Of a DNA stretch of 10,189 nt, positions 2,510 through 10,189 are shown one piece after another. The stretch is from the IMG/VR virus record IMGVR_UViG_2541047699_000011. The stretch is one strand, 5' to 3'. The position numbers and the translations under genes were made by a program. The DNA comes from a virus (Duplodnaviria; Heunggongvirae; Uroviricota; Caudoviricetes). Positions within the stretch are counted from its first letter, which is position 1, and every line of letters starts with the position of its first letter. Under the pieces are notes generated by a model. The model was given only the letters and a program-made list of their open reading frames with translations, was not told the origin of the DNA and did no database searches.

Positions 2510-3592
2510 TTAGAACTGATAAACCAGACCTACAGCGACGATGTCGTCGGTATCAATACCAGCTGTTTTGGTAAACTTACTATCGTCAATTAAGTTGATT
2601 TTGTAATCAACAAAAGTGGACATGTTTTTATTAAAGTAGTAAGTAGCACCGACATCGACATACTTGACTAAGTCTCGGTCACCATGAACACCAAGGTCTT
2701 TACCTTTTGACTGAAGGTAAGCAACAGATGGTCGCAGACCGAAGTCAAACTGATATTGTGCTACTGCTTCAAAGTTTTGTGCTTTGTTTGCAATATGGTT
2801 ATTACCAAAAACGGTCATATTCTGAGTTTCAGAATATGTGGTAGCCAGATAGATATTGTTCGCATCATATTTCAGGCCTGCAGCCCATACTTCCGCATTT
2901 TTGCCGGAGGCATTGAATTTGCTCTTACCATAGGCGACCTGACCGTCAGTGCGATCTGATTTAGCATAGGTTGCACCCACGCCGAATCCTTCATACTCAT
3001 AAGTAGTGGAGAAACCGAAACCATCACCATTGGCTTCAGTTACGTCAGTGCGGTCATTTTTACCCTGATACTGAGCAGCAAAGTTCAGGCCATCGACCAG
3101 ACCAAAGAAGTCGTTGTTACGATAAGTTGCAACACCAGTAGTGCGACCAGTCATGAACACATCTGTTTGGGTCCAGGTATCACCACCGAATTCTGGCAGG
3201 ACGTCAGTCCACGCACCGATGTCGTATGCTACACCGTAGTTACGGCCGTAATCGATTGAGCCGTAATCACCAAATTTCAGGCCTGCAAATGCAAGACGGG
3301 TTTTGTCTTTGGAAGAACCTTGAGATTCAGCACGGTTGCCTTTGAATTCATATTCCCACTGACCGAAACCAGTCAGTTGATCGTTGATTTGGGTTTCACC
3401 TTTGAAGCCAAGACGGGCATAAGTAGTATCACCATCATCTGCATCATTAGAGGAGAAGTAGTGCTTGGCATTAACTTTCCCGTATAGATCCAGCTTGTTA
3501 CTGTCTTTATTATAAATTTCAGCTGCCTGAGCAGACATCGCCATCAGTACTGATGCAGCTACAGCAGAAATTGCCACTGTTAATTTTTTCAT
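2510..3592 (-). CDS. nmpC: outer-membrane general porin, OmpC/OmpD/NmpC family, 360 aa precursor
   Basis: Signal peptide [23 protein letters not shown]|AEIYNKD, porin hallmark LYGKV...GFKGETQ, and C-terminal ...VGLVYQF ending in Phe; uninterrupted ORF. Confidence 0.9.
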
Positions 3593-4018
3593 TGTACGCC
3601 CTTTTTTTTGAACTATTATTAAAAAATGATGTCACTGCGCGATAAATATTCATCTAATCAATGCGATTATTTCAAGATGTAAGTTTTAGTTTCTCATTTA
3701 ATTTGTGAAGTAGATCTCTATTTTTATCTGAACCTTTTCTATCTAATCCTATTCATGGCTCTTGTTTGAACGAAAATAAATCTATTAGCTAATTTATATT
3801 AATGGCACTTATTTATAAGCGCTCTATAATTCTTTAACTTAATTTAAACAAACTAAAAATAACATCGGAAATTATTCATTGGTTATTTGTTGAAGTTTTC
3901 TTATGTATTTGTGGTGGTGTTTTGAACACTCGGTGGCATTCTCACAAATATCATTTAGTAGTTTACGTACGTAAAAAATTGGTTATGCTGTTAAGAGTGG
4001 TTACTTCGTCACACAGCT

Positions 4019-4050
4019 TAAACCCGCCGTCGAGCGGGTTTTTCCATTTT
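4019..4050 (+). terminator. rho-independent terminator-like hairpin upstream of the holin gene
   Basis: AACCCGC-CGTCGA-GCGGGTT stem-loop followed by TTTCCATTTTTT. Confidence 0.4.
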
Positions 4051-4181
4051 TTGAGTCTCGATATTAGCTGATAACCCAATACCTGAGTTATTCACTGACT
4101 CCGAATCTGTTACGTTTCTGCCTTTATTGCGATACGTAGTATCCCCTTAATTTACACCCGCTTTGTCTGCGAGGTGGGGTT

Positions 4182-4397
4182 ATGAAATCCATGGATAAGT
4201 TAACAACGGGTGTCGCCTATGGCACCTCAGCAGGTAGTGCCGGGTACTGGTTTTTACAGTTGCTCGATAAAGTCACGCCCTCACAGTGGGCGGCAATAGG
4301 TGTGCTGGGTAGTCTGGTATTTGGCTTGCTGACGTATCTGACAAACCTTTATTTCAAGATTAAAGAAGATAAGCGTAAGGCTGCGAGAGGTGAATAA
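4182..4397 (+). CDS. essD: class II pinholin (phage-21 S type), 71 aa, dual-start motif
   Basis: [26 protein letters not shown]...[17 protein letters not shown] has two TMDs and a charged C-terminus [13 protein letters not shown]; Met1/Met4 dual start; GAGGTGGGG RBS; stop overlaps the next ATG (TAATG), as in S21-R21. Confidence 0.9.
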
Positions 4398-7300
4398 TGT
4401 CGCCATCATTACGCAAGGCTATTGCTGCTGCTATTGGTGGTGGGGCTGTTGCCATAGCGTCTGTGCTCATCACTGGTCCGAGTGGTGACGATGGCCTGGA
4501 AGGTGTCAGCTACATACCATACAAAGATATTGTTGGTGTATGGACTGTATGTCACGGGCATACAGGAAAAGACATCATGCTCGGTAAAACGTATAAAGGC
4601 AGCAGTAAGGGGCATACCCCGCGCGAAGCGAAGGACAACCTGAAATCCACGCAGTTACTGAGTGTGATCGATGCCATCAGCGAAGGGCCGATTGAAGGTC
4701 CGGTGGATGGGTTAAAAAGCGTGCTACTGAACAGTACGCCGGTGCTGGACACTGAGGGGAATACCAATATCTCCGGTGTCACGGTGGTGTTCCGGGCAGG
4801 TGAGCAGGAGCAGACTCCGCCGGAGGGGTTTGAATCCTCCGGCTCCGAGACGGTGCTGGGTACGGAAGTGAAATACGACACGCCGATCACCCGCACCATC
4901 ACGTCGGCAAACATCGACCGTCTGCGTTTTACCTTCGGTGTGCAGGCACTGGTGGAAACCACTTCAAAGGGTGACCGGAATCCGTCGGAAGTTCGCCTGC
5001 TGGTTCAGATACAGCGTAACGGTGGCTGGGTGACGGAAAAAGACATCACCATTAAGGGCAAAACCACCTCGCAGTATCTGGCCTCGGTGGTGGTGGATAA
5101 CCTGCCTCCGCGCCCGTTCAATATCCGGATGCGCAGGATGACACCGGACAGCACCACAGACCAGCTGCAGAACAAAACGCTCTGGTCGTCATACACCGAA
5201 ATCATCGATATGAAACAGTGCTACCCGAACACGGCACTGGTCGGTGTGCAGGTGGACTCGGAGCAGTTCGGCAGTCAGCAGGTGAGTCGTAATTATCATC
5301 TGCGCGGGCGCATTCTGCAGGTGCCGTCGAACTATAACCCGCAGACGCGACAATACAGCGGTATCTGGGACGGAACGTTAAAACCGGCATACAGCAACAA
5401 CATGGCCTGGTGTCTGTGGGATATGCTGACCCATCCGCGCTACGGCATGGGGAAACGTCTTGGTGCGGCGGATGTGGACAAATGGGCGCTGTATGTCATC
5501 GGCCAGAATTGCGACCAGTCGGTGCCGGATGGTTTTGGTGGCACGGAGCCGCGCATCACCTGTAATGCCTGGCTGACCACACAGCGTAAGGCGTGGGATG
5601 TTCTCAGTGATTTCTGCTCGGCGATGCGCTGTATGCCGGTATGGAACGGGCAGACGCTGACGTTCGTGCAGGACCGGCCGTCGGATAAGGTGTGGACCTA
5701 TAACCGCAGTAATGTGGTGATGCCGGATGATGGCGCGCCGTTCCGCTACAGTTTCAGCGCCCTGAAGGACCGCCATAATGCCGTTGAGGTGAACTGGATT
5801 GACCCGGATAACGGCTGGGAGACGGCGACAGAGCTTGTGGAGGACACGCAGGCCATTGCCCGTTACGGTCGTAACGTCACGAAGATGGATGCCTTTGGCT
5901 GTACCAGTCGGGGGCAGGCACACCGAGCCGGGCTGTGGCTGATTAAAACGGAACTGCTGGAAACGCAGACCGTGGATTTCAGCGTGGGCGCAGAAGGGCT
6001 TCGCCATGTGCCGGGCGATGTTATTGAAATCTGCGATGATGACTATGCGGGTATCAGCATCGGCGGGCGCGTGCTGGCGGTGAACAGCCAGACCCGGACG
6101 CTGACGCTCGACCGTGAAATCACTCTGCCATCCTCCGGTACCACGCTGATAAGCCTGGTTGACGGAAGCGGCAATCCGGTCAGCGTGGAGGTCCAGTCCG
6201 TCACCGACGGCGTGAAGGTAAAAGTGAGCCGGGTTCCTGACGGCGTTGCCGGATACAGCGTGTGGGGGCTGAAGTTGCCGACGTTGCGCCAGCGCCTGTT
6301 CCGCTGCGTGAGTATCCGTGAGAACGATGACGGCACGTATGCCATCACTGCCGTGCAGCATGTACCGGAAAAAGAGGCCATCGTGGATAACGGGGCGCAC
6401 TTTGACGGCGACCAGAGCGGCACGGTGAATGGTGTCACGCCGCCAGCGGTGCAGCACCTGACTGCCGAAGTCACCGCAGACAGCGGGGAATATCAGGTGC
6501 TGGCGCGCTGGGACACGCCGAAGGTGGTGAAGGGGGTGAGCTTTATGCTTCGCCTGACCGTGGCAGCGGATGACGGCAGTGAGCGGCTGGTCAGCACGGC
6601 CCGGACGACGGAAACCACATACCGCTTCACGCAACTGGCGCTGGGGCGGTACACGCTGACAGTCCGGGCGGTAAATGCGTGGGGGCAGCAGGGCGATCCG
6701 GCGTCGGTATCGTTCCGGATTGCCGCACCGGCAGCACCGTCGAGGATTGATCTGACGCCGGGCTATTTTCAGATAACCGCCACGCCGCATCTTGCCGTTT
6801 ATGACCCGACGGTACAGTTTGAATTCTGGTTCTCGGAAAAGCGGATTACCGATATCAGGCAGGTTGAAACCACAGCCCGCTATCTTGGCACGGCGCTGTA
6901 CTGGATAGCTGCCAGTATCAATATTAAGCCGGGCCATGATTATTATTTTTATATCCGCAGTGTGAATACTGTTGGCAAATCGGCATTCGTGGAGGCTGTC
7001 GGTCAGGCGAGCGATGATGCTTCCGGCTATCTGGATTTTTTCAAAGGCCAGATAACTGAATCCCATCTCGGCAAGGAGCTGCTGGAAAAAGTCGAGCTGA
7101 CGGAGGATAACGCCAGCAAACTGGAGGAGTTTTCGAAAGAGTGGAAAGACGCCAACGATAAATGGAATGCCATGTGGGGCGTCAAAATTGAGCAGACCGA
7201 AGACGGCAGGCATTATGTCGCGGGTATTGGCCTCAGCATGGAGGATACGGAGGAAGGCAAACTGAGCCAGTTCCTGGTTGCCGCTAACCGTATCGCGTTT

Positions 7301-7987
7301 ATTGACCCGGCAAACGGGAATGAAACGCCGATGTTTGTGGCGCAGGGCAACCAGATATTCATGAACGAAGTGTTCCTGAAGTATCTGACGGCTCCCACCA
7401 TTACCAGCGGCGGCAATCCGCCGGTATTTTCCCTGACACCGGACGGGCGGTTGACGGCGAAAAATGCCGATATCAGCGGTAACGTGAATGCGAACTCAGG
7501 GACGCTCAATAATGTCACGATTAACCAGAACTGTCGGATTCTGGGAAAACTGTCTGCCAACCAGATTGAAGGTGATATTGTCAAAACGGTGGGAAAAGCC
7601 TTTCCGAGAAATGGCAGTTATGCCAGCGGTACAATAACGGTCACTGTGTACGATGACCAGGCTTTTGACCGTCAGATAGTAATCCCACCCGTTCTGTTTC
7701 GCGGTGGTAAGCATGAAAACTTCAACAGCAACAACCAACAGTCATACTGGTATTCAACCTGTAAGCTGCAGGTACTGAAGAACGGACAGGAAATCTTTCA
7801 GCAACCCGCGACGGATGTCAGCAGGGTATTTTCATCCGTCATTGATATGCCAGCGGGACACGGCCATGTCACCCTGACTTTCAATGTTTCTTCATATGGT
7901 GCAAATAACTGGACGCCAACGACCAGTATCAGCGACCTTCTTGTTGTCGTGATGAAGAAATCAACAGCCGGTATCAGTATCAGTTGA
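4397..7987 (+). CDS. chimeric ORF: SAR-endolysin N-terminus (~66 aa, RrrD/R21-like signal-anchor) fused in frame to a lambda-J-type tail-tip host-specificity protein (~1130 aa)
   Basis: Residues 1-66, [66 protein letters not shown], match the phage-21 R / DLP12 RrrD N-terminus. From residue 67, [39 protein letters not shown]... follows lambda J from its third codon for more than 1100 residues. One uninterrupted frame. Confidence 0.85.
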
Positions 7988-8034: not shown

Positions 8035-8045
8035 GTGGAGTGAAT

Positions 8046-9356
8046 ATGGCAGTACAGATTTCAGGCGTGCTGAAAGACGGTGCAGGAAAACCAATACAGA
8101 ACTGTACTATTCAGCTCAAAGCAAAGCGTAACAGCACCACGGTACTGGTGAACACGGTGGCCTCTGAAAATCCGGATGAAGCCGGGCGTTACAGCATGGA
8201 TGTTGAGTATGGCCAGTACAGCGTCACCCTGCTGGTTGAAGGTTTTCCGCCTTCACATGCCGGGACCATTACCGTCTATGAAGGTTCCAGACCAGGTACG
8301 CTGAATGATTTTCTCGGTGCCATGACGGAAGATGATGTCATGCCGGAGGCATTGCGTCGTTTTGAGGTAATGGTGGAGGATGTGGCACGCAACGCTGAAG
8401 CCGCCTCTCAGAGCGCAGCGGCAGCAAAGAAATCAGAAACAGCAGCGGCATCGTCCAGGAACGCGGCGAAAACATCAGAGACGAATGCAGGTAACAGCGC
8501 GAAAGCGGCAGCTTCTTCAAAAACAGCCGCACAAAACGCAGCAACAGCGGCAGAACGTTCAGAGACAAATGCCCGTGCGTCAGAAGAAGCCTCCGCAGAC
8601 AGTGAAGAGGCTTCCCGCCGTAATGCAGAGTCAGCCGCTGAAAATGCCGGAGTCGCCACCACAAAAGCGCGGGAGGCTGCAGCAGACGCAACAAAGGCCG
8701 GGCAGAAAAAGGATGAGGCTCTGTCGGCAGCGACACGAGCTGAAAAGGCGGCAGACCGCGCAGAAGCCGCAGCGGAAGTGACTGCAGAGCCCTATGCGAA
8801 TATAGTGCCGCCGCTGCCTGATGTGTGGATACCGTTTAACGATTCACTGGATATGATTGCGGGTTTTTCTCCGGGCTATAAAAAAATAGCTATTGGTGAC
8901 GATGTGGTTCAGGTCGCCAGTGATAAACAGGTTAATTTCAGTCGCGCATCAACGGCAACATATATCAACAAATCTGGCGAACTGAAAACGGCGGAAATTA
9001 ATGAGCCGCGATTTGAGTGTGATGGCCTGCTTATTGAGGGACAAAGAACGAACTACATGCTCAATTCGGAAAGTCCAGCCAGCTGGGGGAAGTCATCAAA
9101 CATGGATGTGCCCGAAACCGGGACGGATAGTTTTGGTTTTACTTATGGAAAGTTTGTCTGCAACGATTCTCTGGTTGGGCAAACTTCGGCTATTAATATG
9201 GCATCAATTGCTGCAACAAAGTCAGTTGATGTCTCAGGCGATAACAAGTACGTGACAACCTCATGCCGTTTTAAAACAGAACGACAGGTAAGGTTACGTA
9301 TACGGTTTGATAAGTATGATGGTAGTGCAACAACTTTTCTTGGCGATGCGTACTGA
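8046..9356 (+). CDS. stf: side tail fibre protein (Stf-like), N-terminal ~436 aa, 3' end truncated by an IS insertion
   Basis: ATG at 8046 with GGAG 5 nt upstream; MAVQISGVLKDGAGKPIQNCTIQLKAKRNSTTV...GRYSMDVEYGQYSVTL matches the lambda Stf N-terminus, followed by an Ala/Ser/Glu-rich repetitive shaft; the stop TGA (9354-9356) is the first three bases of the IS end. Confidence 0.75.
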   Translation: MAVQISGVLKDGAGKPIQNCTIQLKAKRNSTTVLVNTVASENPDEAGRYSMDVEYGQYSVTLLVEGFPPSHAGTITVYEGSRPGTLNDFLGAMTEDDVMPEALRRFEVMVEDVARNAEAASQSAAAAKKSETAAASSRNAAKTSETNAGNSAKAAASSKTAAQNAATAAERSETNARASEEASADSEEASRRNAESAAENAGVATTKAREAAADATKAGQKKDEALSAATRAEKAADRAEAAAEVTAEPYANIVPPLPDVWIPFNDSLDMIAGFSPGYKKIAIGDDVVQVASDKQVNFSRASTATYINKSGELKTAEINEPRFECDGLLIEGQRTNYMLNSESPASWGKSSNMDVPETGTDSFGFTYGKFVCNDSLVGQTSAINMASIAATKSVDVSGDNKYVTTSCRFKTERQVRLRIRFDKYDGSATTFLGDAY

Positions 9357-9425
9357 AGTGGTTTACTGAATTTGGCCACCTGAACAGAGGTGATATGCTC
9401 ACCTCAGAACAACACAGGTGCCATA

Positions 9426-10189
<764 letters not shown>

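Follow-up and report, generated by a model that had tools for sequence, protein, structure and literature searches.

The analysed window, a stretch of 10,189 nucleotides, corresponds to the late region of a sitABCD-carrying, defective lambdoid prophage (Bievrevirus/4A7 type) that resides at icd in phylogroup B2 Escherichia coli. Its reduced lysis cassette is very probably the result of ordinary prophage decay by one deletion, which fused the start of the endolysin gene to the tail gene J and requires no selection on the surviving holin gene essD. The features on which the analysis is based are as follows.

1923-2321, + strand: quuD, a Q-type late-gene antiterminator gene (PF06530 Phage_antitermQ, E=1e-53; the PGAP start is equivalent to 1938).
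2510-3592, - strand: intact NmpC/OmpD-like porin gene, a moron between quuD and essD (PF00267 Porin_1, E=2e-151; 'porin OmpC' in PGAP).
3520-4181, + strand: regulatory region and leader of the lysis operon (promoter and terminator scan, comparison with K-12).
4182-4397, + strand: intact essD, an S21-type class II holin (pinholin) gene with dual starts M1/M4 (PF04971, identity to K-12 EssD and the 4A7 holin).
4397-4595, + strand: rrrD', codons 1-66 of an R21/RrrD-type SAR endolysin gene, in which the SAR segment and the initial third of the GH24 domain are preserved (66/66 residues from 4397 shared with the 4A7 endolysin, which is of the RrrD type).
4594-4595, + strand: deletion junction, a TA dinucleotide common to both parental sequences (three sequences aligned: window, 4A7 endolysin, 4A7 J).
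4596-7987, + strand: codons 3-1132 and stop codon of J (tail tip attachment/host specificity protein), in frame from the rrrD start (4A7 J alignment, Pfam).
4397-7987, + strand: chimeric ORF RrrD(1-66)::J(3-1132), 1196 aa (ORF translation; 'gpJ' in RefSeq, WP_001556898.1).
8040-9356, + strand: N-terminal part of an stf-like side tail fibre gene, cut by an insertion sequence (PF08400 phage_tail_N, E=2e-67).
9354-10189, + strand: left portion of an ISEc52/IS911-like element of the IS3 family, continuing beyond the window (ORF 9390-9728 resembles orfA; match to ISEc52 of M1/5).

The undeleted parent type is represented by phage 4A7 (Bievrevirus bv4A7, NC_049946) and by the icd prophage of strain SE15. 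The 4A7 DNA is 99.4% identical to the window from the porin-essD spacer to the breakpoint, both relatives possess the same cargo (sitABCD, esterase, porin) and the same icd attachment fragment, and the SE15 prophage encodes EssD and QuuD under the same accessions as found here. Unlike the present element, however, 4A7 and SE15 have a complete early region and integrase and carry the missing DNA, which amounts to 17,255 bp as determined from the undeleted SE15 prophage and in agreement with the 4A7 coordinates. With this segment the element lost the remainder of R, the spanin genes Rz/Rz1, cos, the terminase and every head and tail gene that precedes J, as well as the start codon and ribosome-binding site of J itself. 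Across all other E. coli genomes, matches to essD/rrrD stop at window position 4595 (query position 414) and matches to J start at 4594 (query position 413). The chimera is the product of a single deletion by illegitimate recombination at a 2-nt microhomology. The end coordinate of 4600 proposed earlier for the cassette lies at most 5 nt from this true breakpoint (4594-4596).

The J part of the chimera is identical to 4A7 J at 1108 of 1130 residues (98%), from J residue 3 to the end, and all J domains score (PF24801, PF13550, PF24421, PF24489, PF09327 and PF12421, each with E<1e-35). The divergence from 4A7 J reflects phage mosaicism predating the deletion, and since the carriers are moreover too clonal, dN/dS on J is uninformative.

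The rrrD' frame overlaps the essD stop codon as TAATG. The full-length homologue of the remnant matches PDB entries 4ZPU (RrrD) and 3HDE with E around 1e-109, and the Pfam Phage_lysozyme match in the remnant spans only profile positions 3-45 of 125, leaving the GH24 lysozyme domain incomplete. The SAR segment is kept (residues 7-27, of which 62% are Gly/Ala/Ser/Thr; hydropathy peaks at 2.3, in residues 9-25), and the residues beyond it (28-66) include E35, D44 and T50, which we take to be the catalytic triad of R21; because two thirds of the GH24 fold are missing, the fragment should be inactive. In tblastn searches of the window, RrrD residues 67-165 as well as the SE15 Rz and an Rz1-like ORF gave only matches with E>0.1. 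The earlier note on this DNA had described an endolysin reduced to its SAR segment with no spanin genes following. The truncation, located after codon 66, and the lack of the R remainder and of Rz/Rz1 are borne out, but 66 codons are kept rather than the SAR segment alone, and the word 'stub' does not apply, as there is no stop codon and the frame goes on for 1130 codons into J. In the annotation of the whole icd element (M1/5, FDAARGOS_536) there is likewise no other lysozyme or spanin, and hence no endolysin-spanin pair elsewhere in the same prophage, a possibility that the note had raised against its own reading. Compared with the phage 21 cassette (S21 pinholin/antiholin, R21 SAR endolysin, Rz/Rz1), only the pinholin is whole here, since the endolysin breaks off after 66 of its 165 residues and no spanin is left; pinholin, SAR endolysin and spanin occur together in one cassette in the parents 4A7 and SE15.

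A 1196-aa chimera is encoded because the join happens to be in frame, for which the chance is 1 in 3. The exact protein was found on at least 1000 public contigs, always under the name J, and the chimeric ORF is annotated as a whole gpJ CDS in 26 of the 30 best-listed carrier records. In a functional chimera, the J part, tethered to the membrane, would be directed by the SAR segment to the periplasm via Sec, where it might, for example, act on an outer-membrane receptor or be released in vesicles. The retained translational coupling to essD, the hydrophobic N-terminal SAR segment, the complete set of J domains and the intactness of the ORF in most carriers are compatible with such a role, but the in-frame join is expected in one case out of three, and several carriers have an IS4 within the ORF, with no sign that such copies are selected against. 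In addition, the cytoplasm is the normal site of folding and trimerisation for J, a protein of 124 kDa, and we know of no precedent for an exported SAR::J chimera. We therefore consider a functional chimera hardly credible.

The 71 aa product of the ORF at 4182-4397 matches Pfam PF04971 ('Bacteriophage P21 holin S') with E=2e-35 over profile positions 1-63 of 64 (score of 121 bits against a cutoff of 26), and shows 100% identity with both K-12 EssD (ESSD_ECOLI) and the holin of 4A7, a live phage. It belongs to the same family as S21 of phage 21, with which it shares the M-K-S-M dual start, and in an alignment it was about 86% identical to what we take to be the S21 sequence. The N-terminus M1-K2-S3-M4 is a dual-start motif from which an antiholin, starting at Met1 and carrying an extra Lys, and a holin, starting at Met4, are predicted, and a Shine-Dalgarno sequence, GAGG, is located 8-11 nt 5' of the first ATG. 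The Kyte-Doolittle profile displays a strong TMD2 at residues 37-53 and a weak N-terminal segment at residues ~8-27, consistent with a two-TMD layout of a weak, releasable TMD1 and a stable TMD2, although hydropathy is blind to membrane release itself. The earlier description of essD as intact, S21-type and dual-start thus stands.

Of 5426 complete E. coli genomes, 79 had the deletion, M1/5 and ST1193 among them; 160 genomes had an intact cassette. The 79 carriers are 99.9-100% identical over ~9.3 kb, and ST1193 chromosomes match the window at 99.9-100%; M1/5 matches it at 100%, yet has its ISEc52 copy elsewhere in the element. The element itself is already known as a published partial prophage of ST1193: 'Prophage 2' of that clone, a 29.7 kb region scored 'questionable' by PHASTER, lies downstream of icdA and contains sitABCD, ompC and multiple IS (PMC11488385), and is, as described there, the same element; the passages of that report on 'Prophage 2' mention neither the orphan holin nor the R'::J fusion. 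Decay continues in other parts of the element. The integrase gene is frameshifted, xis truncated and the O-like replication gene frameshifted or deleted; cI/cro and most of the early region are absent (annotation of M1/5 and FDAARGOS_536); and insertion sequences have entered J (IS4, in some strains) and, in this window, stf, matches to which end at position 9353 in genomes without the IS.

Upstream of essD, the gene order ybcN-ninE-ybcO-rusA-ylcG-quuD-porin-essD is the same as in the K-12 prophage DLP12. DLP12 differs in residing at argU, in having the whole cassette (essD-rrrD/ybcS-rzpD/rzoD) and in its porin gene being split by IS5, whereas the element at icd has kept its porin, arranged as in 4A7, and lost R and Rz. 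QuuD (WP_001204794.1, common to M1/5, FDAARGOS_536 and SE15) distantly matches the Q21 structures 6P18 and 6JNX (E=3e-8). Between the porin gene and essD, the sequence shares 96% identity with DLP12 and contains a putative sigmaE-like motif read by eye (GAACTA-16-TCACT, 3610-3636) and, according to the scan, a sigma70-like site (3802-3830) and a hairpin resembling a terminator (4020-4041), the region of which is 100% conserved. The forward primer of a K-12 promoter-reporter fragment, which drove lux in K-12 (PMC7918800), maps exactly at 3520-3539. The reverse primer as printed had no match within 3 mismatches in the window or K-12 and resembles essD at ~4285-4306 with indels; as it can be placed only loosely, a transcription start near 3641 is an estimate, but by the primer positions the promoter region examined in K-12 lies between the porin and essD genes. 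A late promoter directly 3' of quuD was also considered and rejected, as the stretch 2321-2510 holds only hairpins resembling porin terminators. A tRNA scan of the window and an Rfam scan at gathering thresholds gave no match, and thus there is neither a tRNA moron in the style of stx phages nor a known RNA between Q and S.

Small heptameric channels of ~2 nm, which depolarise the membrane without freeing a cytoplasmic endolysin, are known for S21 68 only; through such channels a pinholin by itself collapses the proton-motive force (PMC9636201). The earlier statement that a pinholin alone would depolarise the cell without lysing it agrees with the phage 21 literature reviewed there. From this it had been proposed that the orphan pinholin is a cryptic toxin or dormancy effector which depolarises the cell upon late-gene induction. 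The idea is biophysically plausible, and essD with its ribosome-binding site, the sequence upstream and quuD are unimpaired, but nothing in the analysis supports it. With cI/cro and most of the early region lost and the integrase frameshifted, however, no repressor or SOS circuit is left to induce the late genes. Triggering takes ~7000 molecules per cell, and an antiholin form is also encoded (PMC9636201), and a K-12 strain retaining essD without its partners is viable (PMC7918800). Furthermore, a second prophage at potB/potC, ~15-45 kb away, in both carriers examined (M1/5 and ST1193 MS10858) has a complete cassette that encodes a holin of class II, a spanin-like lysis protein and a lysozyme whose N-terminus resembles a SAR segment. 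The pinholin is hence an orphan within its own icd element, as had been claimed, but not in the cell. Taken together, these data make a toxin function improbable.

Somewhat better placed, though still unlikely, is a domesticated envelope modulator, in which low pinholin activity would tune vesicles, peptidoglycan turnover or biofilm, as proposed for DLP12. The K-12 cassette is transcribed under the control of Q, RpoE and Hha and responds to pH, osmolarity and temperature (PMC7918800), and the regulatory region conserved here is nearly that of K-12. The closest experimental analogue of the present element is an engineered K-12 double deletion of ybcS and rzpD/rzoD keeping essD, which increased vesicle production 2.4-fold, whereas K-12 strains without essD behave as wild type (PMC7918800). 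Against this, the authors of that work saw the benefit as coming from the operon as a whole, above all from the endolysin (PMC7918800), which is destroyed here; there is also no selection signal, the essD product being identical to the holin of a live phage and the carriers near-clonal. A further reading, more improbable than the toxin, is that quuD, the regulatory region and essD act as a trip-wire fired by strong sigmaE envelope stress or by a superinfecting lambdoid phage with a Q protein able to recognise the late promoter here. The pinholin would then pass its threshold early, and the proton-motive force would collapse ahead of completion of the invader's cycle, in a Rex-like abortive infection without lysis; an exported, functional SAR::J chimera would be a variant less likely still.

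Ordinary decay by one deletion accounts for these observations as follows. Lying upstream of the breakpoint, essD would be a simple survivor that still has its ribosome-binding site, dual start, regulatory region and quuD. By analogy with phage 21 and K-12, the lysis operon is probably transcribed at a low, sigmaE- and Q-dependent level, EssD would stay below the trigger of ~7000 molecules, with the S71 antiholin form as an additional buffer, so that the effect on the cell may be none or at most a mild change in envelope or vesiculation. Only if the pinholin were forced above threshold would collapse of the proton-motive force and a growth stop without lysis be expected. Persistence of the element would most plausibly be due to its cargo (sitABCD, porin) and to a young host clone. 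By rough arithmetic, ~6-8 disruptive events per ~30 kb lead to a neutral expectation of ~0.05 hits in a 216-bp gene, and the intactness of essD is therefore uninformative on selection; nothing indicates that these 216 bp in a young, near-clonal element have been retained by selection. Counted against decay were the measurable phenotype of the K-12 essD-only strain (PMC7918800), in view of which essD may have some physiological effect, the intact chimera in most carriers (the 26 of 30 best-listed records mentioned above) and the presence of the allele in a very successful clone, the latter two being also expected from hitch-hiking in a young lineage.

If the pinholin were expressed and phage-protective, it would be a simple natural case in which a lysis gene has been put to new use as a defence by depolarisation, although nothing points in that direction. 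The main value of the present analysis lies in a correction, namely that the state of an element whose holin is none other than K-12 EssD is explained by a single deletion, starting from a known phage type that is live. The 1196-aa 'gpJ' spread by RefSeq is really an endolysin-fragment::J chimera, and under this label it can mislead surveys of tail proteins and of lysozyme domains. The junction at 4594-4595, in turn, offers a clean marker by which the STc14/ST1193 version of the sitABCD prophage can be traced as a lineage.

ORF calling showed that the window carries the late region of a lambdoid prophage, arranged as follows:

Ahead of quuD: ybcN, ninE, ybcO, rusA and ylcG, in this order
1923-2321: quuD
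2510-3592, minus strand: porin gene, in opposite orientation between quuD and essD
4182-4397: essD
4397-7987: ORF of 1196 aa
8040-9356: tail-fibre gene
9354-10189: start part of an IS3-family element, after the tail-fibre gene

The side tail fibre gene is truncated at ∼9354 by this ISEc52/IS911-like element; no IS was found at that position in the complete genomes listed, and strain M1/5 carries an identical copy, but near xis. The NmpC/OmpD-like porin moron is intact (360 aa), whereas its counterpart in the K-12 cryptic prophage DLP12 is split by IS5; live phages of the 4A7 group also carry such a moron.

EssD (71 aa) matched the phage 21 holin family in a Pfam profile search (PF04971, E=2e-35) and was identical to K-12 EssD as well as to the holin of 4A7, a viable Escherichia phage. 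As its N-terminus, M-K-S-M with an upstream GAGG, is the antiholin/holin dual-start arrangement of S21, the earlier note had correctly described an intact S21-type pinholin gene with a dual start. Its description of the partner endolysin as a SAR stub held for the truncation, but not for a free stub. The essD stop overlaps the start of the 4397 ORF (as TAATG), residues 1-66 of which are identical (66/66) to the RrrD/R21-type endolysin of 4A7, a protein that at full length matches PDB 4ZPU and 3HDE (∼1e-109). No stop codon follows residue 66, and the frame continues into the tail tip protein J, residue 67 onward corresponding to J residues 3-1132 with 98% identity to 4A7 J and all six J-specific Pfam domains. 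The endolysin fragment of this R'::J chimera keeps the hydrophobic Gly/Ala-rich SAR segment (hydropathy peak at residues 9-25), as well as E35, D44 and T50, which form the catalytic triad in R21; roughly two thirds of the endolysin fold are absent, and of the 125 positions in the lysozyme Pfam profile only 3-45 are matched. As tblastn with RrrD 67-165, Rz and the Rz1-like ORF gave no match within the window, the statement that spanin genes are missing after the endolysin holds.

A three-way alignment of the window with the 4A7 endolysin and J genes placed the breakpoint at 4594-4596, where the endolysin side reads to ...ACGTATA and the J side restarts with AAGGCAGC, the TA dinucleotide at the junction being common to both parents. 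Sampled complete E. coli genomes lacking the junction independently supported this position, as their essD/rrrD matches stop at 4595 and their J matches start at 4594. Strain SE15 carries an undeleted prophage at icd whose EssD and QuuD protein accessions are the same as those of the deleted element; relative to SE15 the deletion comprises 17,255 bp, and 4A7 coordinates gave the identical size. The deleted DNA contains:

remainder of the endolysin gene
spanin gene
DUF6979 gene
cos and the terminase genes
portal, capsid and every tail gene upstream of J

The 2-nt microhomology points to illegitimate recombination; an in-frame join would be expected a priori in one of three cases.

Of 5426 complete E. 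coli genomes, 79 had the junction (99.9-100% identity across ∼9.3 kb); the intact cassette was present in 160 genomes. Carriers are near-clonal and include M1/5, FDAARGOS_536, MCJCHV-1, MS10858, MS8320, 09-02E and AVS0096, the last five of which are ST1193 reference strains according to PMC11488385. The same paper already reports the element in ST1193: it is Prophage 2 there, graded "questionable", 29.7 kb long, located downstream of icdA and carrying sitABCD and ompC. In the annotated carriers M1/5 and FDAARGOS_536, the element is flanked by icd and a duplicated icd fragment, with sitABCD on board. It is heavily decayed, with a frameshift in the integrase gene, a truncated xis, and a repressor and early region that have been lost or interrupted by IS elements. 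An inverse-autotransporter/Ig-like adhesin gene has taken the place of the early region of the phage: FDAARGOS_536 has the full-length 3.9-kb gene (locus L001, 10913-14821, coordinates local to each locus), M1/5 a truncated one beside ISEc52 (L002, 18378-19883). In viable phage 4A7, sitABCD and a 3' fragment of icd are also present (L003, 24135-27584 and 28512-28664), so an active temperate phage makes this ExPEC iron/manganese transporter mobile.

Both the element and its components are already known, and the exact junction and the in-frame chimera were the only undocumented details found. RefSeq/PGAP labels the chimera 'gpJ phage attachment tail tip protein J' (WP_001556898.1, 1196 aa, J itself having 1132 aa), and an identical protein is encoded on at least 1000 public contigs, named J every time. 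In some strains IS4 lies inside J, the 3.6-kb chimera thus being already broken in several carriers; that it serves a function is highly improbable.

The 589-bp spacer preceding essD shares 96% identity with that of K-12 DLP12, with perfect conservation of a terminator-like hairpin (4020-4041). A 17-bp leader stretch of essD (4119-4135, ctgcctttattgcgata) is also found in 4A7 and is absent from DLP12. In K-12, a lux reporter is expressed from a fragment given as -121 to +650 (PMC7918800); since the forward primer of this fragment matches exactly at 3520-3539, the start site is estimated at ∼3641 from this primer, the reverse primer having no exact placement. By our own reading, a sigmaE-like motif (GAACTA-16-TCACT, 3610-3636) lies just upstream of the estimated start and the hairpin ∼380 nt downstream, still before essD, a layout that fits a putative Q-dependent read-through. 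The K-12 cassette is transcribed under the control of the Q antiterminator, RpoE and Hha (PMC7918800), and by homology low-level transcription of the window operon appears more likely than total silence.

Pinholins form heptameric channels of ∼2 nm, their Met1 product being the antiholin; triggering needs ∼7000 molecules per cell, abolishes the proton-motive force and frees SAR endolysins from their membrane tether (PMC9636201). Given this mechanism, the reasoning that a lone pinholin would depolarise the cell without lysis is sound: triggering without endolysin would arrest or kill it while leaving it unlysed. The toxin or dormancy role that the earlier note derived from this is nevertheless very unlikely. 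K-12 lacking ybcS and rzpD/rzoD but retaining essD is viable, its sole difference from wild type being 2.4-fold more vesicles, and strains lacking essD are wild-type-like (PMC7918800); as the nearest experimental analogue, this speaks against essD having a strong effect in nature. Moreover, the element has lost its repressor/SOS circuit, which leaves no route to "late-gene induction" as understood for a phage.

As claimed, the pinholin is an orphan inside its own element, whose annotation contains no other lysozyme or spanin. In both carriers inspected, M1/5 and MS10858, a lambdoid prophage in potB/potC, ∼15-45 kb from the element, has lysis genes for a class II holin similar to S21 (71 aa), a lysozyme of 177 aa whose N-terminus (MNTKIKYGLSAAVLALIAAGA...) looks SAR- or signal-like, and then a spanin-like "lysis protein":

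L005 (MS10858), 18912-21547: potB/potC lysis cassette
L007 (M1/5), 28320-30955: potB/potC lysis cassette

In MS10858 the J gene, a tail fibre gene and a C40 peptidase gene of this prophage are frameshifted, and in M1/5 these genes are apparently intact. At the level of the cell, the pinholin is thus not an orphan in at least these two carriers.

With roughly 6-8 disruptive events per ∼30 kb of the element, only ∼0.05 hits are expected in the 216-bp essD, and its intactness is therefore uninformative on selection; a domesticated essD with an envelope-modulating role is unlikely. Taken together, the earlier observation was partly confirmed and its interpretation partly supported, and the simplest account, which we consider probable, is that the prophage decayed recently and is retained because of its cargo or has yet to be purged.
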